NCBI GenBank assembly: GCA_026388415.1
Contig: JAPLJV010000006.1
Coordinates: forward strand, 48,556 to 112,555
Direction of reading: 5' to 3'
Origin: Deltaproteobacteria bacterium
Lineage (GTDB): Bacteria > Desulfobacterota > Syntrophia > Syntrophales > JACQWR01
DNA: 64,000 nt
Shown one piece after another: positions 4,454 to 40,550 of the stretch. Made by a program: the position numbers and the translations under genes. The notes below the pieces were generated by a model, which worked only from the letters and a program-made list of their open reading frames with translations, was not told the origin of the DNA and ran no database searches. The stretch's first letter is position 1; every line of letters begins with the position of its first letter.

Positions 4454-4841
4454 GGGGAGGCCCAGCCTTTTCCAGAATCACCACGGCGGTTGCGGCATGC
4501 CGCGTATGAGACAGGCTTAAGTGCGTCGCCGACACCCTGAGGCGACGCAACATGCCTTTCGCCCTGCCCCGCAGTCTGACTTCCGGTTTTCCGCGTTGAT
4601 CGCTCACGACTTCAATCTCCTGTAACGAAAGCCCCATGCCCAAGCCTATGCCCAGGGACTTAAGCAAGGACTCTTTGGCCGCAAACCGGGCCGCAAAATG
4701 CATCGCCGGCAGCGCCCGGTTATGGCAATAAGCGATTTCACCGGGAGTAAAAACCCGCTCCACAAAGCGATTGCCCCATCTGGCGATGATGCCCGCCATC
4801 CGCTGGACCTCCACAATATCTATTCCTGTGCCGTAAATCAT
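4446..4841 (-). CDS. acpS: holo-ACP synthase
   Basis: MIYGTGIDIVEVQRM start and FAAKESLLK motif, 131 aa. Confidence 0.88.
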   Translation of the reverse strand: MIYGTGIDIVEVQRMAGIIARWGNRFVERVFTPGEIAYCHNRALPAMHFAARFAAKESLLKSLGIGLGMGLSLQEIEVVSDQRGKPEVRLRGRAKGMLRRLRVSATHLSLSHTRHAATAVVILEKAGPPHA

Positions 4842-4874
4842 AATAACCCCATGCCCGGAGTGGGCTCAAGGAAG

Positions 4875-4932
4875 TATGAAAATCCCCCCTTAACCCCCCT
4901 TTAGTAAAGGGGGGGATGGGAGGATTTTCATA
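4875..4932. repeat. long palindromic REP-like element
   Basis: Outer arms TATGAAAATCC / GGATTTTCATA enclose the inner hairpin CCCCCCTTT-agt-AAAGGGGGG. It lies in the acpS-folP spacer. Confidence 0.7.
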
Positions 4933-29579: not shown

Positions 29580-30170
29580 ATGAGAGAGAAATGGTTTTCT
29601 GATAATCGTGATCTTCTGAAGTGGGCTATATTGACACAAATTGCCAAAAAGAAAGGTTTATTTACGATTTTACAAATACCATATTGGCGACCCGAAGCAT
29701 TTTATCCTCATTTCAAATTTCAAGATGAAAGTCTGCAAGTTCCAGATAAGGTGTGGAAGTTTTTTCGAAATATACATCATGTCAAGGATTTGGGACCTAA
29801 AATCGGAATTTCAATAAATATCGTTGCCGCAGAATTTAGATCTGATCAACGTGATAAGTATTTGAAAGAAATTGAATCCGAAATCAGGCGATTAAAACGA
29901 CCACTTCTACTTTTCCTTGATCCGGATACAGGCTTGCAGCCAACTGATTGCAAGCCTGAGCACACTTCTATCAACGAAATAAAGAAACTATGGCCAATCC
30001 TTAAAAGCAATGAGTGGTTAGTTTTGTATCAACACGCCAGGCGTACTCCTGATTGGAGTCAATCCATAACCGGCCAACTTAGTTCTTTATGTAATAATGC
30101 ACCGGTACATCTCGCAAAGTCAGAAGATGTGGGAAAGGATGTTGCTTTCCTTTGTGTCGAAAAGCAATAG
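29580..30170 (+). CDS. hypothetical protein (196 aa), AT-rich
   Basis: Clean ORF with conserved-looking acidic patches (FSDNRDLLKW, LFLDPDTGL). No family recognised. Confidence 0.6.
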   Translation: MREKWFSDNRDLLKWAILTQIAKKKGLFTILQIPYWRPEAFYPHFKFQDESLQVPDKVWKFFRNIHHVKDLGPKIGISINIVAAEFRSDQRDKYLKEIESEIRRLKRPLLLFLDPDTGLQPTDCKPEHTSINEIKKLWPILKSNEWLVLYQHARRTPDWSQSITGQLSSLCNNAPVHLAKSEDVGKDVAFLCVEKQ

Positions 30171-31294: not shown

Positions 31295-33548
31295 GGAAAA
31301 TGGGGCGGTAAAGCAGACGACAACCATTTCCGTGGGGGGGATGACCTGTGCGGCGTGCGTGCGCCGGGTGGAGATGGCCATCAAAGCCCTGCCCGGTGTG
31401 AGCGAGGCGGCGGTGAATCTGGCCACGGCCGGGGCAACGGTACAGCACACTGCGGAATGGGCCGGGATCCATGCCTTGAAGCAGGTTATTGTAGACCAGG
31501 GATATGAATATCTGGGTGTTGCGGGTGAGACGGGCGGGGATCCGGTCGGTGAAGCCCGGGACCGGGAGCTTCGGGAGCTAAAGGCAAAATTTACTCTGGG
31601 CGCTTGCTTGAGCATCGTCATTTTCTTTGGTTCCATGCAGCACTGGTTTCCGTTCCTGGCTTTCATCCCGCGTCGCCTCATGCTTTTTATCCTGTTCTTC
31701 CTGACCACGCCGGTGGTTTTTTGGGTGGGAGCCCGTTTTTATGTCGGCGCCATTAAAGCGGCCCGGCAAAAAACTGCCGATATGAACACCCTGGTGGCCG
31801 TAGGCGTCCTGGCGGCCTATCTTTATTCGGTATTGGCCACCTTCGCCCCGGCTTTTTTTGCGGTGGCCGACATGATGCCGCACGTTTATTACGACGGGGC
31901 GGCGACGATCGTCACCCTGATCCTGCTCGGCCGACTCCTGGAAGCCAAGGCCAAGGGAAGGACATCGCTCGCCATCAAGAAATTGATCGGCCTGAAGCCG
32001 CGGACGGCCCGGGTGGTCCGCGAGGGTAGGGAAGAGGATATCCTGCTGGAAGAAGTGATGGCCGGAGATGTGGTCATCGTTCGGCCGGGGGAAAAGATTC
32101 CCACAGATGGAGAGGTGCTCACGGGCGCCTCCACGGTGGATGAGGCGATGTTGACGGGTGAGAGCATGCCGGTTGCCAAGGAGCCCGGTCAGCAGGTCTT
32201 CGCGGCCACGATCAATAAAAGCGGCAGTTTTACCTTCCGGACGACCAAGATCGGAGCGGATACCGTTCTGGCCCACATCATTCGCCTTGTGGAAGAAGCC
32301 CAGGGCTCCAAGGCCCCGATCCAAAGGCTGGCGGATAGGGTGGCATCTATTTTTGTGCCCGTGGTGATGCTGATTGCCATAGCGACTTTTCTGGTCTGGT
32401 ATTTTCTGGTTCCCGACCATGTTTTCAGCCGCGCCCTGTTAAATTTTGTCTCCGTACTCGTTATTGCCTGCCCCTGCGCCCTGGGATTGGCCACTCCGAC
32501 TGCCGTTATGGTGGGCACCGGTCTCGGAGCGGAGAAGGGCATTCTGATCAAGGGCGGGGAAACACTGGAGAGGGCTGGCAAGCTCGGTATGGTTGTGTTC
32601 GATAAGACGGGCACCCTGACCAAGGGGGAACCGGAAGTAACGGATATCATCGTCGCCGCAGGGGCTACGGAGGAAAGGGTTCTGCAGACGGCCATGTCTC
32701 TGGAAGCAGTCTCTGAGCATCCTCTGGCGGCGGCCATTGTGGCCAGAGGGAAGCAGGATGGCATCACGCCGATAGCGGTGGAGCAATTTGAGGCGCGACC
32801 TGGATTCGGTGTTCAGGCTCTCCTTGCCGGGCAGGCAATTCTGCTGGGAAATCTCAGGTTTATGGAACAGAATCGCGTTACGCTCGACGGACTGGAAGCC
32901 AAGGCAGAAGAACTATCCCACGCGGGTAAAAGCTGCGTTTTCATTGCGGAAGATAAAAGAGTAATGGGGCTCATCGGTATTTCTGACCAGCCAAAACCAT
33001 CGGCGGCGGCGGCGGTTAGGGCCCTGAAGAAAATGGGCCTGCAGGTAGCGATGATTACGGGTGATAACGCCCGGACTGCTCAAGCCGTGGCGCAAGCAGT
33101 GGGCATTGATCAGGTTTTGGCCGAAGTGTTGCCCCAGGATAAGGCAAACGAAATCAAGCGGTTGCAGAAGGAAGGCCAGATGGTGGCTATGGTAGGGGAC
33201 GGCATCAACGATGCGCCGGCCCTCGCGGCGGCGGACATCGGGATTGCCTTGGGCGCCGGCACTGATGTGGCCATTGAGACGGGCGATATTACGCTCATGA
33301 ATAACGATTTGCGGTCCGTCGCGATGGCGATCAGCCTTTCCACAACGACCATGAAGATCATAAGGCAGAACCTCTTCTGGGCCTTTATCTACAATGCCAT
33401 CGGCATTCCCATTGCCGCCGGAATACTGTATCCTTTCGGAGGGATACTCCTCAATCCGGAGTTTGCCGCCGCCGCGATGGCCTTAAGTTCCGTTTCCGTC
33501 GTCAGCAATTCGCTGCGCCTCCGCAGGGCATGGCAGCCGGTGATGTGA
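31260..33548 (+). CDS. copA: copper-translocating P-type ATPase
   Basis: HMA GMTCAACV, then CPC (CPCALGLATP), DKTGTLT and VGDGINDAP. The start is uncertain: either the ATG at 31260 or the TTG at 31287, which overlaps the copZ stop. Confidence 0.93.
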   Translation: MQSPRRGSKLAEENGAVKQTTTISVGGMTCAACVRRVEMAIKALPGVSEAAVNLATAGATVQHTAEWAGIHALKQVIVDQGYEYLGVAGETGGDPVGEARDRELRELKAKFTLGACLSIVIFFGSMQHWFPFLAFIPRRLMLFILFFLTTPVVFWVGARFYVGAIKAARQKTADMNTLVAVGVLAAYLYSVLATFAPAFFAVADMMPHVYYDGAATIVTLILLGRLLEAKAKGRTSLAIKKLIGLKPRTARVVREGREEDILLEEVMAGDVVIVRPGEKIPTDGEVLTGASTVDEAMLTGESMPVAKEPGQQVFAATINKSGSFTFRTTKIGADTVLAHIIRLVEEAQGSKAPIQRLADRVASIFVPVVMLIAIATFLVWYFLVPDHVFSRALLNFVSVLVIACPCALGLATPTAVMVGTGLGAEKGILIKGGETLERAGKLGMVVFDKTGTLTKGEPEVTDIIVAAGATEERVLQTAMSLEAVSEHPLAAAIVARGKQDGITPIAVEQFEARPGFGVQALLAGQAILLGNLRFMEQNRVTLDGLEAKAEELSHAGKSCVFIAEDKRVMGLIGISDQPKPSAAAAVRALKKMGLQVAMITGDNARTAQAVAQAVGIDQVLAEVLPQDKANEIKRLQKEGQMVAMVGDGINDAPALAAADIGIALGAGTDVAIETGDITLMNNDLRSVAMAISLSTTTMKIIRQNLFWAFIYNAIGIPIAAGILYPFGGILLNPEFAAAAMALSSVSVVSNSLRLRRAWQPVM

Positions 33549-33579: not shown

Positions 33580-33608
33580 TTGACAAGCAAAAACGGCCCC
33601 CCTATACT
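33580..33608 (+). promoter_or_regulatory. near-consensus sigma70 promoter upstream of hsdR
   Basis: TTGACA (33580-33585), a 17-nt spacer, then TATACT (33603-33608). A perfect 10-bp palindrome ATCAATTGAT lies at 33633-33642. Confidence 0.45.
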
Positions 33609-33720: not shown

Positions 33721-36069
33721 ATGAGCACCGAAGCTGACGCCAGGATGGTGATCGACAAACTGCTGGAGACGGCAGGGTGGCGGATCACAAACAAGGCCCA
33801 GGTCTCGACCGAAGAGCCATCCGCAGATGGACGGGCGGATTATCTGTTGAAGGATTCCCGCACCCGGCCCCTCGCCGTCATCGAGGCCAAGCGTTTTGCC
33901 ATCGATCCCTATTCAGCGAAGGATCAAGCCCGCGAGTACGCACAATCTCTCGGCGCTCATTTCGTCATTCTCAGCAACGGCGAGGAACATTATTTTTGGG
34001 ATTATGAGGACGGGGATGCCAGGCCCATCATGGGGATGCCGTCCCAGGCGGACATGGAGCGCCGGGCCAACATCAAGGTGCACCGCCGTGGTTCCCTCGA
34101 GGAATCATTGCGCATCATCCCTTTCCCAGAAAAGTTTTTCTTCAAAGGGGAAGAGGTCAAAACCCGTCCTTATCAGCTAAAATGCTTGACAAAGGCAGAT
34201 GAAGCGCTTGTTAGCAACCGTCGAAGGATGCTTTTCGAGATGGCGACCGGAACCGGAAAGACGCTGACCATCGCCATGCTGATAAAGCGGTGGTTTCAGG
34301 CGGCGGTCGTCTCACGGGTCCTGTTTCTTGCGGACCGGATCGAACTCGCCAAACAGGCCAAGGAAACCTTTGACGATTATCTCCGCGACTGGCCGGCAGT
34401 TGTACTCTACGGCGGGAAACACAGTCTTGAAGGTCAGATCGTCGTCGGAACCCTCGACACGATCGCCGGTCAGCTCGGTCCCAATGGCTTCGGCCATGCC
34501 TACTTCGATCTGGTCGTCACCGATGAATGTCACCGTTCCATTTACAATACCCACCGCGCCACCCTCGGCCACTTCGATGCGATCCATATCGGCTTGACCG
34601 CCACGCCCAACCCTGGGGAACTCCAATGGATCAGCGAACATGAAAAGCGCCTGGTCCGGAATACCTATATCTTTTTCGACTGCTGGGACGCGGCGAAAAA
34701 AGAGGGGCGCCCCACTTTCGAATACGGCATCCAGACGGCGATTCAGGAGAATCACTTAGCCCGGTACAGCATTTACCACGCCGAGAGCGTTCTGACTTAC
34801 GAAGGCGCCCAATGGGAAGAAGAGGAGATCAAACCCGGGGCTTGGGGGAGAGAGGTCGAGTCCGAAGATCGGCTTAGGACGATCATTCAGGAATACTACT
34901 CGGCGGATGCCGAGCGATCGAAAGCCCGTTCCAGAAAGACGATCGTTTTTGCCGTTTCCGACAAACAGGCCGATGTCCTCGTCCGCCTCTTCAACCGCTT
35001 GCTGACAGATGAAGACTGCCTGCGAATCGCCAGTCAGTTGAACCGTTCCCCATCACAGGTACGGCAGGATTATGCAAAGAAGATCACCTGTTATGCAAAC
35101 AATGGCAACCCCAAACCGATCATCGACCAGTTCAAATACGATCCGTTGCCTGTAGTCGCCGTTTCGGTCGATATGCTGGATACGGGATATGACCACAAAG
35201 AGGTGGAAAATCTCGTCATGCTGAGGCCAACCCTCTCTGCCATCAAATACGTCCAGATGCGCGGTCGCGGCAGTCGCCTCTGTCCCCGCATTGGCAAGAC
35301 GGAGTTCGTCATCTACGATTTTGTCGGCAACACAAAGCGTTTCAACGATCCGGGTGAGGCCTATCACAAGCCGAAAATCGTCGGGACAGCGCCCGGAGCT
35401 AAACCTCTCGCGGCTGAAGAGGAAAATGACGGATGTGGAACGGCAGAGGCATTGGGAAAAACACCCTATCCGGCAGCAGCGCGTTCCGGCTTTTTGGTCA
35501 TTCAGGAAGGGTCTCTCGATGACGAGATCCGCGCCCGCGAGATCATTCTGGTTGGTCCGGAGGGGCTTGCCATCGACCGCAAGACCTATCGCGAAAAATG
35601 GGAAGAAAAAGTCATCGAACTCAGGAAGAGCGATCCCGCGGTGGAAAAGATCTTTCGTGGCGAGGTGTTGACCGATCAGGAATGGGAAGAACTTGCCCGG
35701 CGTCTCAATTCGCCGGAATACTACTTCAACGAGCCGTCGCTGCGCCGGGCTTTTGAACAGCCCTCCGGTTCGCTTTCAGATTTTATCCGCGTGTCGCTGG
35801 GCCAGGGTCGGTTCCTGACCAGGGAGGAGCGCATCGAAAAGGCGTTCAACACCTGGGTGGCCGAACACTCCAGCAGCATCGACGCCGCAAAAGCGCAAAT
35901 GCTCCGCCTCCTCAGGGCGCGGGTCAGCGCCGGCGAAGAGATCACCATGCGCCTCTTCAGCCAACCGCCGTTCGCGTTATGGGGCGGGCTCACCCGGATG
36001 GAACAGCTCTTCGGCAAGGACCAATTGCTTCAGATGGTAGATGAATTGAACGAACTGCTCGCGGCATAA
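33721..36069 (+). CDS. hsdR: type I restriction enzyme R subunit (EcoEI/type IB-like)
   Basis: N-terminal nuclease region ADYLLKDSRTRPLAVIEAKR, helicase motifs MATGTGKT and TDECHR, and an EcoEI_R_C-like tail. The ATG at 33721 is preferred over the TTG at 33580. Confidence 0.85.
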   Translation: MSTEADARMVIDKLLETAGWRITNKAQVSTEEPSADGRADYLLKDSRTRPLAVIEAKRFAIDPYSAKDQAREYAQSLGAHFVILSNGEEHYFWDYEDGDARPIMGMPSQADMERRANIKVHRRGSLEESLRIIPFPEKFFFKGEEVKTRPYQLKCLTKADEALVSNRRRMLFEMATGTGKTLTIAMLIKRWFQAAVVSRVLFLADRIELAKQAKETFDDYLRDWPAVVLYGGKHSLEGQIVVGTLDTIAGQLGPNGFGHAYFDLVVTDECHRSIYNTHRATLGHFDAIHIGLTATPNPGELQWISEHEKRLVRNTYIFFDCWDAAKKEGRPTFEYGIQTAIQENHLARYSIYHAESVLTYEGAQWEEEEIKPGAWGREVESEDRLRTIIQEYYSADAERSKARSRKTIVFAVSDKQADVLVRLFNRLLTDEDCLRIASQLNRSPSQVRQDYAKKITCYANNGNPKPIIDQFKYDPLPVVAVSVDMLDTGYDHKEVENLVMLRPTLSAIKYVQMRGRGSRLCPRIGKTEFVIYDFVGNTKRFNDPGEAYHKPKIVGTAPGAKPLAAEEENDGCGTAEALGKTPYPAAARSGFLVIQEGSLDDEIRAREIILVGPEGLAIDRKTYREKWEEKVIELRKSDPAVEKIFRGEVLTDQEWEELARRLNSPEYYFNEPSLRRAFEQPSGSLSDFIRVSLGQGRFLTREERIEKAFNTWVAEHSSSIDAAKAQMLRLLRARVSAGEEITMRLFSQPPFALWGGLTRMEQLFGKDQLLQMVDELNELLAA

Positions 36070-36091: not shown

Positions 36092-38170
36092 ATGGACAGC
36101 GCCCAAATACAGAACACGCTCAAGGCCCTCTGCAAGGTGATGTGGGACAACAACGTCACCAACCCCATCACCTACGTGACACAGATCTCCTATCTCCTCT
36201 TTCTCAAGATGATCGAGGAGATGGATCATGAACAGAAGGAGGCTGGAAACGGCAACCATCGCTCCCTGTTCGGCAGATATGAAAGCGAAGGCGAGGAGTT
36301 GGACTTTGATTCTCTGCGCTGGAGCGTTCTGGCGTCGGATCCCGACAACGAACGCATGTTGCGCACCCTGCGCGACACCCTACCGCTGTTGGCCCGCCAC
36401 CCTAAACTTTCCCTGGGGGCCCGAGCCGTTTTCCGCAACGCCGCGGTCGTGATCCCTTCCGGTGCGGCCCTGCGTCGGGCGGTGGACATCATCGCCCCCA
36501 TCTCCTTCCTCGGCATCGACGCCGACGTGAAGGGGGATCTGTTTGAATATCTCGCCAGCGAGTTGGGCGGTCAGAAGAAGGCGGCCCAGTTCCGGACGCC
36601 CCGCCACCTGATCCGTGTGATTGTCCAGATGGTTGATCCCCGGATCGGCCAAACGATCTGCGATCCGGCCTGCGGGAGCGATGGCTTTCCCATTGCCGCC
36701 TATGAGCATATCCTTCTGGCCAACACCGGTCCGGAATTCATCCGTGAAAAGATCGGCCCCGACGGCCTGCCGCGCCGGATCGGCATCGGCGACCGATTGA
36801 GCCGCGCCCAGTGGGATTTTCTGCAGAAGGGGACGTTTCACAGCTTCGACGGCGACCAGGACATCCTCCGTATGGCCGCCATGAACGCCGTGCTCCACGG
36901 ATTCGACGAGTCGCCCATCGTCCAGCGGGATTCCATTTGCGGCAGCGAGGACAAATGGGACGAAATCCAGTTTGACTGCATCCTGGAGAACCCGCCCTTC
37001 TCCGGTTCGCGCGGCGACGCCAAAAGGTCGCTTCGCATCGAAAAAGGCGACAAATACGTCCTGTTCCTCGCCCACGCCCTGCGGAGCCTGCGGCAGGGCG
37101 GCACGGCGGGGATCATCTTTCCCAACGGTATCCTCTTCGGCAACACGGGCAGCCATCTGACCGTCAAGGAGCGGCTGCTCAAGGAGTTCGATCTCCAGGC
37201 ATTGGTTGTTCTTCCCAAGGGGATGTTCGAACCCTACACCCCCAACCCCACCTGTTTCATGATCTTCAGGAACACCGGCCGCCCAACCCAGAACGTCTGG
37301 TTCTTCAAGGTGGACGGAGACGGTTCGTCCCTGTCCAGGGCGCGGAAATTCGGCCCCCAGTACCGAAACGATTTTCTGGATCTGCTCCGAATGTGGCCCG
37401 GACGCGAGACTGAGGAGGGACGTGCTTGGCTGGTGCCAGCTCAGAAGATCATTGACAACGGCTTTAAAATGACACTAACAGACTTAGGCCTGATCGAGAC
37501 TGAAACAGTTGAGCATCTCGAACCCGAGGAGATCCTCTCTTCTGTTGTTGCCAAGGAAGAAAGCATCATGCAATTGGTTCAGGAAATGCGCGATTGTCTG
37601 GAAGGCATGAGCGATGGTGGTTATACTCAAGATTGGCTAAGCGAACCTTTTGCTGAGGCGGTAAATCGTTTTCAAACCAGAGGCAGGAAGTTAAAAACAG
37701 CAGAATATCAGGATTCAGGGATTCTCCCTATTGTTGATCAGGGACAGACAATAATCGTCGGTTATACTGACAATATTGGATGCAAATTTCAGGGACCATA
37801 CCCAGTAGTCGTCTTTGGTGACCATACAAAGAATGTCAAATTTATCGACTTTGAATTCGCTGTTGGCGCAGATGGAGTAGTTTTGCTGCGTCCACGAAAT
37901 GAAAGTAAATTAGACATCAGATATCTCTACTATTGGCTCAAGTTCATACCGTTGCATAACCTTGGATATAGTAGACATTTCAAACTGCTCAAAGAGGAAG
38001 AAATAGCATTCCCCGCAAATTTAGGCGAACAACGCCGAATTGTAGAGAGGATCGAAAAATTGATCTTCCGAGCTGATGAAGTTCGTCATTTAAGAATCCA
38101 AACAGAGGAACAAATAGATAAGCAATTCAAAGCGGCCCTTCTGGCCAAAGCCTTCCGGGGGGAACTGTAG
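36092..38170 (+). CDS. hsdM: type I N6-adenine DNA methyltransferase fused to a single HsdS target-recognition domain (HsdM-HsdS fusion)
   Basis: HsdM_N-like start, motif I DPACGSDGF and motif IV ENPPFSG. The last ~180 aa (ILPIVDQGQ...VVFGDH...LRPR...YLYYWL...LGEQRRIVERIEKL) look like one Methylase_S TRD plus a conserved helix. There is no separate hsdS. Confidence 0.8.
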   Translation: MDSAQIQNTLKALCKVMWDNNVTNPITYVTQISYLLFLKMIEEMDHEQKEAGNGNHRSLFGRYESEGEELDFDSLRWSVLASDPDNERMLRTLRDTLPLLARHPKLSLGARAVFRNAAVVIPSGAALRRAVDIIAPISFLGIDADVKGDLFEYLASELGGQKKAAQFRTPRHLIRVIVQMVDPRIGQTICDPACGSDGFPIAAYEHILLANTGPEFIREKIGPDGLPRRIGIGDRLSRAQWDFLQKGTFHSFDGDQDILRMAAMNAVLHGFDESPIVQRDSICGSEDKWDEIQFDCILENPPFSGSRGDAKRSLRIEKGDKYVLFLAHALRSLRQGGTAGIIFPNGILFGNTGSHLTVKERLLKEFDLQALVVLPKGMFEPYTPNPTCFMIFRNTGRPTQNVWFFKVDGDGSSLSRARKFGPQYRNDFLDLLRMWPGRETEEGRAWLVPAQKIIDNGFKMTLTDLGLIETETVEHLEPEEILSSVVAKEESIMQLVQEMRDCLEGMSDGGYTQDWLSEPFAEAVNRFQTRGRKLKTAEYQDSGILPIVDQGQTIIVGYTDNIGCKFQGPYPVVVFGDHTKNVKFIDFEFAVGADGVVLLRPRNESKLDIRYLYYWLKFIPLHNLGYSRHFKLLKEEEIAFPANLGEQRRIVERIEKLIFRADEVRHLRIQTEEQIDKQFKAALLAKAFRGEL

Positions 38171-38172
38171 CC

Positions 38173-39063
38173 GTGGCCAAGGTGGTCCAGATCCCGACAA
38201 TCAACGATTTGCCGGCCGATTTCGAGAGGGTCTTTTCCATTTGGAACCAGGCGAACGACTATTTCGAGGAGGTGCGTTTCGATTTTTCCCGTTGTCATTT
38301 CCTCCGCCCGAATGCCGTGGCGTTTCTCGGCGGATTGGCCCGGTTGATTGCATCTCGCCAGGGAACCGCGATCTTCGACTGGGATACCCTGCGCGACAGT
38401 GCGATCAAGATGAATCTACGCCAGAACGGCTTTGCCGAAATGTTCGGTCAACCATATTCCGGGTGGACAGGCCATTCCATCCCATATCGTGAGGACAGGT
38501 TCCAGGACGTCAACGCGATCATGGACTATCTGACCGATTATTGGCTTGGACGCGGCTGGGTGCAGGTGAGCCCGCGCTTGCGGGACGCCATTGTCGGCCG
38601 CATGTGGGAAATCTACAACAACGCCTTTGAACACAGCGGATCGGAGATCGGCGTTTTCTCCTGCGGCCAGCATTTTCCACAGCAAAACGAGCTGTGTCTG
38701 TCCGTCGTGGATTTCGGGCAGGGAATCCCGGCCAAGGTCCGCAATTACCTGAGCAGCGATTCTCGCGCCGGACAATTGACGGCCGCCGGTTGCCTGCGAT
38801 GGGCTTTTCAGCGGGGGAACAGCACTGCCAAGGCGGATTTCGCACGCGGGCTCGGTCTGGACCTTCTCAAGGAGTTCATACGCCTGAATCAGGGAAAACT
38901 GGAGGTTTACAGCAACGAAGGATATGTGGTAATTGATCAAAACGGCGAACGTTTTGAGAATAGGCCTGTTTCCTTTGAAGGGACCGTTTTTCACATTACA
39001 TTGAGATGCGATGAGGCCCTTTATCGCTTTGCGGATGAAGCGGATGCCGAGCCGCCGTTTTGA
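38173..39063 (+). CDS. GHKL (Bergerat-fold) ATPase / RsbW-SpoIIAB-like kinase-type protein
   Basis: N-box-like EIYNNAFEHS, G1-like VVDFGQGIP and G2-like ARGLGLDLL. The GTG start lies 2 nt after the hsdM-S stop. Confidence 0.65.
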   Translation: MAKVVQIPTINDLPADFERVFSIWNQANDYFEEVRFDFSRCHFLRPNAVAFLGGLARLIASRQGTAIFDWDTLRDSAIKMNLRQNGFAEMFGQPYSGWTGHSIPYREDRFQDVNAIMDYLTDYWLGRGWVQVSPRLRDAIVGRMWEIYNNAFEHSGSEIGVFSCGQHFPQQNELCLSVVDFGQGIPAKVRNYLSSDSRAGQLTAAGCLRWAFQRGNSTAKADFARGLGLDLLKEFIRLNQGKLEVYSNEGYVVIDQNGERFENRPVSFEGTVFHITLRCDEALYRFADEADAEPPF

Positions 39064-39078
39064 AAAGGAGAACCGACG

Positions 39079-39429
39079 ATGAAAATGACTATTAAAGAGA
39101 TGATCGGCCCGCGTTGTATCATCCGGGAAGACGGTCAGAAGGTTTATGACTCAATCTATCCCCTTCTGCAAAGAGGTGAGACCGTGACGCTTGATTTTAC
39201 GGAGGTGTCGCAGTTTGCATCGCCTTTTTTCAATTTTGCTATCGGTCAGTTATTGAAGGATATCAGTGAAGAGGACCTGCGCAGACTGCTGCAGATTGAA
39301 AATCTCGATCCGACCGGAAAGCTGGTGGTCGAGCGGGTCATAGACAACGCCGGACGGTATCACGCCAATGTGGATTATCGAAACATCGTGGATTCCATTC
39401 TCCAGCAACAGGCCCAGGAGTCGGCATAA
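39079..39429 (+). CDS. STAS-like (DUF4325-like) small protein
   Basis: TVTLDFTEVSQFASPFFNFAIGQL matches the DUF4325/STAS-like core pattern (xLDFxGVxxxSxSFxxExxGxL). AAGGAG RBS. Confidence 0.6.
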   Translation: MKMTIKEMIGPRCIIREDGQKVYDSIYPLLQRGETVTLDFTEVSQFASPFFNFAIGQLLKDISEEDLRRLLQIENLDPTGKLVVERVIDNAGRYHANVDYRNIVDSILQQQAQESA

Positions 39430-40058
39430 TGGCAATCAGCTATGCCATCCAGGCGGCGGTGGTGGACATCAAAGCAGATTCTCCGAACTCAAAGGACGTC
39501 TTCTTCGTTGACACGAATGTCTGGTATTGGATGACCTATCCGAACGCCGCCACTGGCGCATTTCCGGGCCAGTTGTCAGATTATCCGGCCTTCGTCAATC
39601 GCGTGTTGGCCGCGGGAGCGAAGATTTGCCACTCGGGCCTTTCCCTGGCTGAACTATCTCACCTGATTGAAAAAACGGGGCGCGAAATCTATATTAAAAC
39701 GACTGGTGATATCAAAACCAAGGAATACCGGCACAATCTGCCCGGCGAGCGTTCCCGTGTGGCATCTGATGTGGAGGCTGCATGGGGGCAGGTGAAATCC
39801 CTCTCTTCACCTCTTGTCTTGACCGTGGACGAGAAGACAACGGATGCCTCTCTGGATCGTTTTCGGACAGAGAAGCTGGACGGCTATGATCTTTTCATTC
39901 TTGAAACCATGAAGAATAATGGTTTGGTCAAGATCATCACCGATGACGGAGATTTCGCGACGGTTTCCGGGATAGAGGTATTTACCGCAAATCGGAATAT
40001 TCTGCTTGCGGCCCGTGCGCAAGACAAACTATTGATGAGAATCAACAATGCCCCGTGA
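39429..40058 (+). CDS. PIN-like nuclease domain protein
   Basis: Acidic quartet in PIN-like spacing: FFVDTNVW, LAELSHLIEK, DGYDLFILE, IITDDGDF. The start ATG shares its A with the upstream TAA. Confidence 0.55.
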   Translation: MAISYAIQAAVVDIKADSPNSKDVFFVDTNVWYWMTYPNAATGAFPGQLSDYPAFVNRVLAAGAKICHSGLSLAELSHLIEKTGREIYIKTTGDIKTKEYRHNLPGERSRVASDVEAAWGQVKSLSSPLVLTVDEKTTDASLDRFRTEKLDGYDLFILETMKNNGLVKIITDDGDFATVSGIEVFTANRNILLAARAQDKLLMRINNAP

Positions 40059-40065
40059 TGAAGGA

Positions 40066-40195
40066 ATGAATAATTTGATTAGGACAATCTTCTGGCAGGA
40101 CGATGCCGTCGTGATGATCAATTAGCGGGCGCTGCCGATTGTGGAGCGGCATGTCACCTGCAACGATTACCGTGAGGTCATCGCTGGGGGAATTC
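40066..40195 (+). pseudogene. mtnA: 5' fragment of methylthioribose-1-phosphate isomerase (mtnA/eIF-2B family) with an in-frame TAG
   Basis: MNNLIRTIFWQDDAVVMIN*RALPIVERHVTCNDYREVIAGG matches the conserved MtnA N-terminus (..W.DG.v.miDQR.LP.e..yv.c.dy.eVa.AI). Similarity is lost after about 40195. Confidence 0.55.
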
Positions 40196-40252
40196 CGGGG
40201 AAAGTACACTTAATTATTTACATAGGAAGCTAAAAACTTATAATGATTATAC

Positions 40253-40531
40253 ATGGCAAGAATAGCAAGAATAGTAGCTCCGCTGATGCCGCATCATATT
40301 ACACAAAGAGGCAATAGACGGCAGGATACATTATTAGTGTCTCCTTTTGTCTAAAGAATATCCTCAATCCCGTTGCGCTGGATCATATTCAGAAGTTCCC
40401 ATTGTCGCGTTGGTCACGTTTTTCAGGGCCGCTATCGGGCGATTATGGTGGAAAAGGATGCCTACCTGCTGGAGTTGATGAGATATGTAGTGACCCCTGC
40501 GTCCTATGCTGCGGTCTTCATCGCCCGGTAG
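40253..40531 (+). pseudogene. decayed REP-associated tyrosine transposase (RAYT / IS200-like)
   Basis: MARIARIVAPLMPHHITQRGNRRQDTLL* matches the RAYT N-terminus. Further on, a second frame reads ...HVFQGRYRAIMVEKDAYLLELMRYV... The gene is therefore truncated and frame-broken. Confidence 0.55.
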
Positions 40532-40550
40532 GGTTGGATCTATGAAATTT

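Follow-up and report, generated by a model that had tools for sequence, protein, structure and literature searches.

In the window (the whole stretch of 64,000 nucleotides that was analyzed), the three genes located downstream of hsdR and an hsdM-S fusion are, judging by their sequences, clearly a member of the VapKSC family. The best explanation, which we hold with high confidence, is that they make up a vapKSC operon, i.e. a kinase-controlled, type II-like toxin–antitoxin and anti-phage module, and they probably close an EcoAI/EcoEI-like type I restriction–modification (R-M) operon at its 3′ end, co-transcribed with the R-M genes. VapKSC was described in Escherichia sp. E4736 by Chambers, Rani, Min, Villa, and Corbett (EMBO J 2026; PMC13373217; PDB 9Z7O), and the coupling of PIN and DUF4325 domains had been listed in 2017 as group PIN.4 (Matelska et al., PMC5499597). 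The initial annotation did not recognize the gene combination as a named defense system; this claim of novelty fails, by the very refutation condition set in the initial annotation, because the literature has a name for the triad. The entries of Dataset EV3 of PMC13373217 already include close relatives that come from MAGs of Syntrophobacterales and Nitrospiraceae and are flagged RM_type_I. A scan with PADLOC-DB 2.0.0 returned no named or candidate system, and no model, for the triad, and NCBIfam gave nothing useful for it. The under-described part is the usual place of this branch behind one type I R-M operon.

The triad consists of three intact, closely spaced ORFs on the + strand: vapK (ORF1; 38173–39063, GTG start, 296 aa), vapS (ORF2; 39079–39429, 116 aa), and a vapC-like gene (ORF3; 39429–40058, 209 aa). 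They are preceded on the same strand by hsdR (33721–36069) and the hsdM-S fusion (36092–38170). The gap between the hsdM-S stop codon TAG and the vapK GTG is 2 nt, and vapS and vapC overlap by 1 nt in the sequence TAATG, as the initial annotation had it when describing three ORFs with essentially no spacers. An AAGGAG ribosome-binding site had been placed 15 nt after ORF1; the site is present, but it lies at 39066–39071, inside the vapK–vapS spacer, and it is this spacer that is 15 nt long. A consensus scan revealed a strong promoter-like match upstream of hsdR at 33580–33608 on the + strand (TTGACA, 17 nt, TATACT; 11/12 matches), from which the five-gene operon might be transcribed. The reading frame of hsdR is open from a TTG at 33580, and the homology starts at the ATG at 33721. 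No intergenic terminator-like site was found on the + strand from hsdR through the end of ORF3. The promoter-like site and the absence of terminators are consistent with a single transcript, but are not proof of it. The flanks of the island hold gene fragments, one MtnA-like and one Y1-transposase-like.

The assignment of the three proteins to GHKL, DUF4325/STAS-like, and PIN families was confirmed by Pfam matches above the curated thresholds, and the motifs quoted in support of it (EIYNNAFEHS, VVDFGQGIP, and ARGLGLDLL in ORF1, FFVDTNVW, LAELSHLIEK, DGYDLFILE, and IITDDGDF in ORF3, and the core of ORF2) are all found in the translations. ORF2 matched DUF4325 (STAS-like) with 66.6 bits (cutoff 23, E = 1.6e-18), and its residues 2–115 matched chain A of PDB 9Z7O, the Escherichia VapS, with E = 2.3e-34; both proteins are 116 aa long. 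The predicted phospho-acceptor S48 falls in a column that is serine in 72 and threonine in two of 74 non-identical sequences, and the C-terminal helix spans residues ~94–116. ORF3 matched PIN with 35.8 bits (cutoff 23.6, E = 1.4e-8), and over residues 1–202 it matched chain C of 9Z7O, the Escherichia VapC, with E = 6.9e-48, the proteins being 209 and 203 aa long, respectively. Its acidic residues D28, E75, D154, D172, D173, and D175 are at least 97% conserved among 52 non-identical sequences, and D28 aligns with D28 of Escherichia VapC.

ORF1 matched HATPase_c over residues 144–278 (31 bits, cutoff 26.4, E = 3.8e-7) and shared 53% identity over 274 aa with Escherichia VapK (E = 3e-108), the sequence of which was taken from the supplement of PMC13373217. 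The protein is divided into a putative STAS-like region (residues ~1–110) and a GHKL kinase domain (~140–280) with the N-box residue N150, a G1 box (D180-x-G182-x-G184), and a G2 box (G226-x-G228). These boxes and F43 show at least 97% conservation across 73 non-identical sequences; F43 lies in RCHFLRPN, which aligns to Escherichia HCRF54LRPN, and the phenylalanine is invariant. In an AF2 model of ORF1 (pLDDT 75), residues 1–108 alternate between beta and alpha elements. A Foldseek search with the model matched GHKL folds, including SpoIIAB (1tid_C, TMt 0.72); ORF1 did not match the NCBIfam RsbW/SpoIIAB models, and the likeness to SpoIIAB is at the fold level only. The N-terminal region of VapK, ~110 aa that the initial annotation left unassigned, has been described as a STAS domain, with the STAS and GHKL domains forming a predicted groove for single-stranded DNA (ssDNA) (PMC13373217). 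By hhalign, the similarity of this region to VapS was weak (E = 0.055), and its secondary-structure pattern is merely compatible with STAS. A phmmer search of PDB sequences with ORF1 gave zero matches because VapK has no solved structure. Two PADLOC matches to ORF1 were rejected: DrmA (E = 8.9e-5) was weak and spanned residues of the GHKL domain only, and PDC-M43B (E = 0.039) was noise.

The window locus and the Escherichia operon thus contain a kinase, a STAS protein, and a PIN protein in identical order, all three homologous, and share VapS S48, VapC D28, and the VapK phenylalanine in CxFLRPN. They differ in that the window VapK lacks ~10 extra N-terminal residues of its Escherichia counterpart, and in that the window genes adjoin the 3′ end of an R-M operon at a distance of 2 nt, whereas the Escherichia operon is solitary. 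Experiments with the latter showed that VapC is toxic and VapC D28A is not, and that VapS neutralizes VapC, a capacity lost in VapS S48E and upon deletion of the C-terminus (PMC13373217). The VapS–VapC crystal structure is a 2:2 complex in which the C-terminal helix of VapS extends toward the active site of VapC, and the operon protected against phage Bas42 by ~2 logs, an effect abolished by VapC D28A, VapS S48A, or VapK F54A (PMC13373217). Escherichia VapK was insoluble, and its proposed ssDNA site is based on an AlphaFold 3 model and the F54A phenotype; kinase activity, activation by ssDNA, and phosphorylation of VapS are proposals of the published model (PMC13373217).

The mechanism that we infer for the window locus is drawn from this Escherichia homologue. 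VapC would be a PIN nuclease, presumably an RNase, kept idle in a VapC2–VapS2 complex, in which VapS would grip VapC through its STAS domain, with S48 buried in the interface and the C-terminal helix close to the active site of VapC. Infection by a phage, or damage to DNA, would generate ssDNA, which may bind in the VapK groove formed by the STAS-like and GHKL domains, with involvement of the conserved phenylalanine (F43 in the window), and switch the kinase on. Active VapK would phosphorylate S48, VapS would leave VapC, and the freed VapC would cause growth arrest of an abortive-infection-like type. We further infer that the junction with the R-M operon makes the window locus a two-layer unit, in which restriction would come first and VapKSC would be the back-up that responds to a build-up of DNA damage or ssDNA; part of this ssDNA may arise when phage DNA is restricted and then processed by RecBCD. 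The initial annotation had also suggested a role as an anti-restriction sensor; the trigger hypothesized in PMC13373217 is ssDNA that results from damage to DNA. The initial annotation had proposed that an RsbW/SpoIIAB-like kinase and a STAS protein gate a PIN nuclease in an abortive-infection-type system, which is essentially the published VapKSC model (PMC13373217). It had also called the module a partner-switching-type sensor; the gating of a PIN toxin by kinase and STAS protein stands, but in the published model a phosphorylation-triggered release of an antitoxin takes the place of a classical partner switch. In SpoIIAB–SpoIIAA and RsbW–RsbV, there is likewise a GHKL serine kinase fold and a STAS substrate phosphorylated on a helix 2 serine, but there the kinase sequesters a sigma factor, whereas VapS sequesters a nuclease. 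No gene for a sigma factor or a PP2C phosphatase was evident in the operon or in the sequence directly beside it. Since the STAS protein rather than the kinase does the sequestering, and since neither of these genes is evident, the window locus is not a true partner switch.

The CapK–CapS system is similar in that a GHKL + STAS kinase phosphorylates a conserved serine of its STAS partner in response to ssDNA, and its genes often follow directly on those of an R-M system (88 of 443 cases; PMC13373217). However, CapK has an extra N-terminal HTH domain and CapS is a DNA-binding repressor with a wHTH domain, and the system ends in transcription of a downstream operon, where VapKSC ends in release of a toxin. 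Pfam found no HTH domain in ORF1 or ORF2, and ORF2, comprising the STAS domain and a short helix, aligns end to end with VapS; the window locus is therefore a relative of CapKS and not a member. As in VapBC, a VapC-type PIN toxin is neutralized by a small protein encoded upstream. Unlike the DNA-binding VapB, VapS is a STAS protein, it leaves the active-site Mg2+ in place, and according to the published model it is released by phosphorylation, whereas VapB is removed by proteolysis. PrrC/EcoprrI and DarTG2 in EPEC (PMC12255303) resemble the locus in that a type I R-M operon carries, inside it or at its end, a nuclease or toxin of the abortive-infection type. They show no homology to the triad. 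PrrC, an anticodon nuclease of the ABC-ATPase class, is regulated through contact with the R-M complex, and such contact is neither known nor needed for VapKSC. HEC-03, which combines an ABC ATPase with a PIN domain (Payne et al., bioRxiv 10.1101/2024.01.29.577857), was rejected, as the ATPase class differs.

The R-M genes themselves are context and lie outside VapKSC. HsdR is an EcoAI/EcoEI-like (type IB-like) restriction subunit with matches to Pfam ResIII, EcoEI_R_C, and HSDR_N_2 and to PADLOC REase_I; its match to NCBIfam restrict_EcoAI (E = 8e-68) is under the curated cutoff of that model. The hsdM-S gene is an in-frame fusion of 692 aa with a half-length hsdS: residues 1–505 correspond to HsdM (Pfam N6_Mtase and HsdM_N; PADLOC MTase_I, 6–504) and residues 506–692 to one target-recognition domain and one conserved helix region (PADLOC Specificity_I, 511–684). 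EcoAI/EcoEI-like type I R-M systems have two target-recognition domains, and in one related locus (L016) hsdM, with a stop at 1592, and an hsdS of ~400 aa are separate genes. The fused protein with its half-length S portion might be defective. MADS was rejected as a candidate, as the matches of the fusion to mad2 and mad5 reflect generic methyltransferase/specificity similarity, and ORF1–ORF3 match no mad model.

Homologue searches gave more than 1000 homologues for each of ORF1, ORF2, and ORF3, and since the gene order was repeated in all loci examined, the triad is not a chance arrangement. A profile alignment scan of metagenomes yielded far more loci than a single-protein scan of genome contigs, which gave six. 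The initial annotation had proposed comparative genomics as a check on the conservation of the triad: vapS and vapC followed vapK in all 67 loci of the window's clade with sufficient downstream sequence, and the triad was also kept at a locus with a VapK of only 30% identity. Upstream of vapK, an hsdM at least 75% identical (79–94%) was present on the same strand in 29 of 48 informative loci, with only hsdS between hsdM and vapK in 23 of the 29, and hsdR orthologues 76–83% identical were found in 22 of the 31 loci for which 6 kb or more of sequence was available upstream. The R-M linkage is thus ~60% in the window's clade vs. ~8% RM_type_I in the dataset of PMC13373217, where such linkage was discussed for CapKS only and not for VapKSC. 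The MAGs of the clade are labeled Deltaproteobacteria/Thermodesulfobacteriota, Nitrospirota, and Gammaproteobacteria, and their spread across phyla at 60–90% identity implies horizontal transfer. The 2-nt hsdS–vapK junction of the window recurs in loci L007 and L013, and the loci with this junction include Gammaproteobacteria and Nitrospirae.

The remaining 19 of the 48 informative loci lack R-M genes, and vapK there lies beside SIR2-, Schlafen/AlbA_2-, Metallophos-, or UvrD-type genes or an integrase. R-M-linked and unlinked VapK proteins are intermixed phylogenetically, 12 of 16 R-M-negative ones having an R-M-positive nearest neighbor. The linkage is, on this sequence evidence, non-obligatory and has been repeatedly gained or lost. 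These observations favor the view that VapKSC is a passenger whose position carries no mechanistic meaning, in a cargo slot or defense-island hotspot at the 3′ end of the R-M operon where unrelated defense genes gather and move together, and that it senses infection independently of restriction, a view to which we give an even chance. In relatives, the same slot holds Mrr_cat, DUF1016/YhcG, a 1286-aa reverse transcriptase protein, or 3–4 kb of extra DNA, and defense genes embedded in type I R-M operons are a general phenomenon (bioRxiv 10.1101/2024.01.29.577857). The Escherichia operon, moreover, was reported to protect E. coli against Bas42 (PMC13373217), and we found zero PADLOC matches within 10 kb of it at its native locus. 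The linkage to one R-M lineage in several phyla, far above ~8%, and the 2-nt gap in three loci count, however, against this view, and restriction followed by RecBCD processing is a plausible source of ssDNA, as PMC13373217 proposes for CapKS.

It is also possible, if rather doubtful, that in this clade VapKSC is more than a neighbor, being a hard-wired second stage of type IB R-M, in which cleavage of unmodified phage DNA by HsdR and processing by RecBCD would produce the ssDNA that switches VapK on. If this is true, restriction itself arms an RNase of the abortive-infection type while the first line is being overwhelmed, and the conserved operon hsdR-hsdM-hsdS-vapK-vapS-vapC is a single immune unit composed of two layers and passed on horizontally in one piece.

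The triad could instead serve mainly as a post-segregational killing module that stabilizes the R-M island and not as a phage sensor. VapS and VapC are a toxin–antitoxin pair by experiment in Escherichia (PMC13373217), the MtnA-like and Y1-transposase-like fragments suggest mobility, and horizontal transfer is implied by the cross-phylum spread. We consider this improbable, as a dedicated kinase with 74 positions at least 97% conserved in the alignment of relatives would be needless for simple addiction, defense against Bas42 needed the VapK F54 site, and there is no evidence for instability of VapS. An anti-anti-restriction guard similar to PrrC/EcoprrI, silenced by or monitoring the R-M complex and fired by an Ocr/ArdA-type DNA mimic or Stp, is very improbable: PrrC is found almost exclusively inside type I R-M operons (bioRxiv 10.1101/2024.01.29.577857), which is a genomic analogy only, and the triad is co-oriented and probably co-transcribed with the R-M genes, but the Escherichia operon was reported to protect on its own and has no nearby R-M at its native locus, the VapS–VapC complex suffices for inhibition, the loss of defense in VapK F54A implicates the predicted ssDNA groove and not a contact with R-M, and 40% of the clade loci lack R-M.

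The discovery value of the locus as a vapKSC operon is small, as VapKSC was named, its structure solved, and its role in phage defense shown in 2026. In many MAGs, the labels ‘ATP-binding protein’, ‘DUF4325’, and ‘PIN domain protein’ can now become vapK, vapS, and vapC. The results reveal a large, well-conserved VapKSC branch whose preferred place is behind the genes of one type I R-M lineage. This R-M-linked branch offers a natural setting in which to test the idea, put forward for CapKS only, that DNA damage made by restriction coordinates front-line and abortive defenses.

The three intact, tightly packed ORFs of the initial annotation were confirmed in the window, together with their coordinates and junctions. 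ORF1 (vapK, 38173-39063, + strand, 296 aa) opens with a GTG, 2 nt beyond the TAG that closes the ORF before it; ORF2 (vapS, 39079-39429, + strand, 116 aa) follows a 15-nt spacer containing AAGGAG, and ORF3 (vapC, 39429-40058, + strand, 209 aa) shares a TAATG overlap with ORF2. Every motif quoted for the three proteins was found, and the proposed folds were borne out by profile searches, in which HATPase_c (ORF1, residues 144-278), DUF4325 'STAS-like' (ORF2, residues 18-80), and PIN (ORF3, residues 26-180) all scored above the curated Pfam thresholds. In the AF2 model of ORF1 (pLDDT 75, pTM 0.77), alternating beta and alpha elements make up the N-terminal domain and the C-terminal part adopts a GHKL fold, with Foldseek matches to TopoVI-B, WalK, GyrB, and SpoIIAB (1tid_C, target-normalised TM-score 0.72). 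Since our profile comparison of the VapK N-domain with VapS was weak (E = 0.055, in a sensible register), the STAS assignment of this domain was taken from Chambers et al.

The results of the homology searches showed that ORF2 matches PDB 9Z7O chain A ('Escherichia VapS', E = 2.3e-34, residues 2-115), ORF3 matches chain C of the same entry ('Escherichia VapC', E = 6.9e-48, residues 1-202), and ORF1 is 53% identical across 274 residues (E = 3e-108) to Escherichia VapK, the sequence of which was taken from the AlphaFold 3 model file of Chambers et al. (PMC13373217). Judged by sequence, ORF1-ORF3 are direct homologues of the characterised VapK, VapS, and VapC of Escherichia sp. E4736. VapS S48 (..QFAS48PFF..) and VapC D28 (FFVD28TN) have identical residue numbers in the window, and VapK F54 (HCRF54LRPN) corresponds to F43 (RCHF43LRPN). 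When conservation was scored over 52-74 non-identical relatives, at least 97% conservation was found for VapS S48 (S in 72 sequences, T in 2), for each of VapC D28, E75, D154, D172, D173, and D175, and for VapK F43, N150, D180xG182xG184, and G226xG228. The triad carries the sequence-level defining features of VapKSC, with a STAS fold of the VapK N-domain that is putative here, and its membership is established at that level.

Chambers et al. [quoted passage not shown] (PMC5499597) gave an older, partial record of the system, listing the coupling of PIN with DUF4325 as group PIN.4 in 2017. As described in PMC13373217, Escherichia VapC is toxic alone and its D28A mutant is not, and VapS neutralises VapC in a 2:2 complex, whose interface buries S48 and in which the C-terminal helix of VapS comes to ~6 A from the VapC active site; neither VapS S48E nor a C-terminal deletion of VapS neutralises VapC. 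The operon protected against phage Bas42 by ~2 logs, an effect abolished by VapC D28A, VapS S48A, or VapK F54A. In that system, VapK kinase activity, ssDNA activation, and in vivo VapS phosphorylation are predictions from the CapK-CapS analogy and an AlphaFold 3 model. We infer by analogy that the toxicity, neutralisation, and defence properties would carry over to the window locus, where VapK, switched on by ssDNA, would phosphorylate VapS, and the phosphorylated antitoxin would be released from the VapC toxin. The mechanism proposed in the initial annotation, in which a PIN nuclease is gated by a kinase-STAS pair, therefore agrees in essence with the published model.

A CapKS regulator was ruled out, since CapK and CapS carry HTH domains whereas ORF1 and ORF2 have none. 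The label of a classical partner-switching module was also rejected: neither a sigma factor nor a PP2C phosphatase is evident in the window locus, and the proposed mechanism is better described as antitoxin phospho-release.

The triad itself does not vary: vapS and vapC followed vapK in each of the 67 loci (duplicates removed) whose downstream sequence reaches at least 1.1 kb, and DUF4325 and PIN genes lay downstream even of a VapK only 30% identical. Loci of the branch to which the window belongs (VapK identity 58-96%) often carry VapKSC at the 3' end of the R-M operon found in the window. Of 48 loci whose upstream sequence extends for at least 3 kb, 29 have a co-oriented hsdM of at least 75% identity upstream of vapK, and in 23 of these 29 hsdS is the sole gene between the two. 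For hsdR, 31 loci reach at least 6 kb upstream, and 22 of them contain a matching copy. The order hsdR, hsdM, hsdS, vapK, vapS, vapC was seen in a Gammaproteobacteria genome, a Nitrospirae MAG, and a further metagenome contig (all Pfam-annotated), two of which share the 2-nt hsdS-vapK junction of the window. By our own count of Dataset EV3 (PMC13373217), ~24 of 289 vapKSC loci (~8%) have RM_type_I nearby, and no neighbour of the Escherichia locus used in the experiments is flagged. In the main text of that paper (term search, section 13, and Discussion), R-M linkage is discussed for CapKS only, and no comment on that of VapKSC was found.

Upstream of ORF1, the window encodes an HsdR bearing ResIII and EcoEI_R_C domains, followed by an HsdM-HsdS fusion of 692 aa (36092-38170, + strand), in which HsdM runs without a stop, in frame, into a half-length HsdS of 187 aa (one TRD and one conserved helix region). 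In relatives, a 509-aa HsdM and an HsdS of ~400 aa with two TRDs are separate genes. The window gene looks like an hsdS deletion between the central and C-terminal conserved repeats plus an M-S fusion; its product, as a dimer, could have a palindromic bipartite recognition site, or it may be defective. By pattern matching only, a strong promoter-like site was found at 33580-33608 and no intergenic terminator-like site within the five genes on the + strand. The TTGACA falls on 33580, the TTG opening of the hsdR ORF, and homology to orthologues begins at residue 48 (ATG 33721). Relatives have a small HTH gene (HTH_17 or HTH_3) directly 5' of hsdR (4648-4875 in the gammaproteobacterial locus L007; 3763-3990 in the related locus L015), a possible controller or RptR-like regulator; the window has no such gene.

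The position between hsdM/hsdS and vapK acts like a cargo slot in relatives, holding an Mrr_cat nuclease (L015, 9100-9993), a DUF1016/YhcG nuclease-like gene (L013, 7705-8829), a 1286-aa reverse-transcriptase protein (L032, 6141-10001), or 2-4 kb of extra DNA (L043-L045, L048). In the gammaproteobacterial loci L007-L012, a Fic gene and two genes of the GmrSD-like (type IV restriction) kind come after the R-M-VapKSC block (e.g. L007 12052-17391), which makes it part of a larger defence island. In L013, the vapC stop is overlapped by a gene for a 635-aa SWIM zinc-finger/DUF6880-like protein. VapS of L092 and L093 is only 37% identical to that of the window, with typical flanking VapK (58%) and VapC (56%), which may reflect antitoxin replacement or rapid divergence; a stop codon at the guessed VapS coordinates means that the ORF might be disrupted.

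Directly 3' of vapC (40075-40200, + strand), the window has an MtnA-like (methylthioribose-1-phosphate isomerase) N-terminal fragment, in which an in-frame stop separates ..IFWQDDAVVMIN from RALP.., and at ~40400-40550 (+ strand) a fragment like a Y1/REP-type transposase (..GHVFQGRYRA..YLLELMRYV..), both judged by eye from translations. Scarring of this kind suggests that an inserted island has its right edge here. To the left, the neighbouring gene encodes a copper-type P-type ATPase and ends at 33548. A 196-aa ORF (29580-30170, + strand, MREKWFSDNRDLLKW...) gave no significant match in Pfam, NCBIfam, or PADLOC.

The linkage to this R-M is not obligatory: it is absent from 19 of the 48 loci, the neighbours there being SIR2-, Schlafen/AlbA_2-, Metallophos-, RT-, or UvrD-type genes, or an integrase. 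For 12 of 16 R-M-negative VapK sequences the nearest neighbour was R-M-positive, which points to this R-M having been gained or lost repeatedly, and not to a subfamily dedicated to R-M coupling. Two-layer coupling of R-M and VapKSC via restriction-generated ssDNA appears rather unlikely; the plainer alternative, in which VapKSC is cargo co-mobilised within a defence hotspot, has at least the same probability.

The initial annotation recognised no named system, but the combination has already been named vapKSC and characterised (PMC13373217), which refutes the claim of novelty under a condition that the annotation had itself set, and the finding is thus already known, although annotation from databases would miss the triad, since PADLOC-DB 2.0.0 has no model for it. 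The residual interest lies in this branch's preferential fusion to one EcoAI/EcoEI-like type I R-M lineage, which invites, and does not demonstrate, a two-layer coupling.
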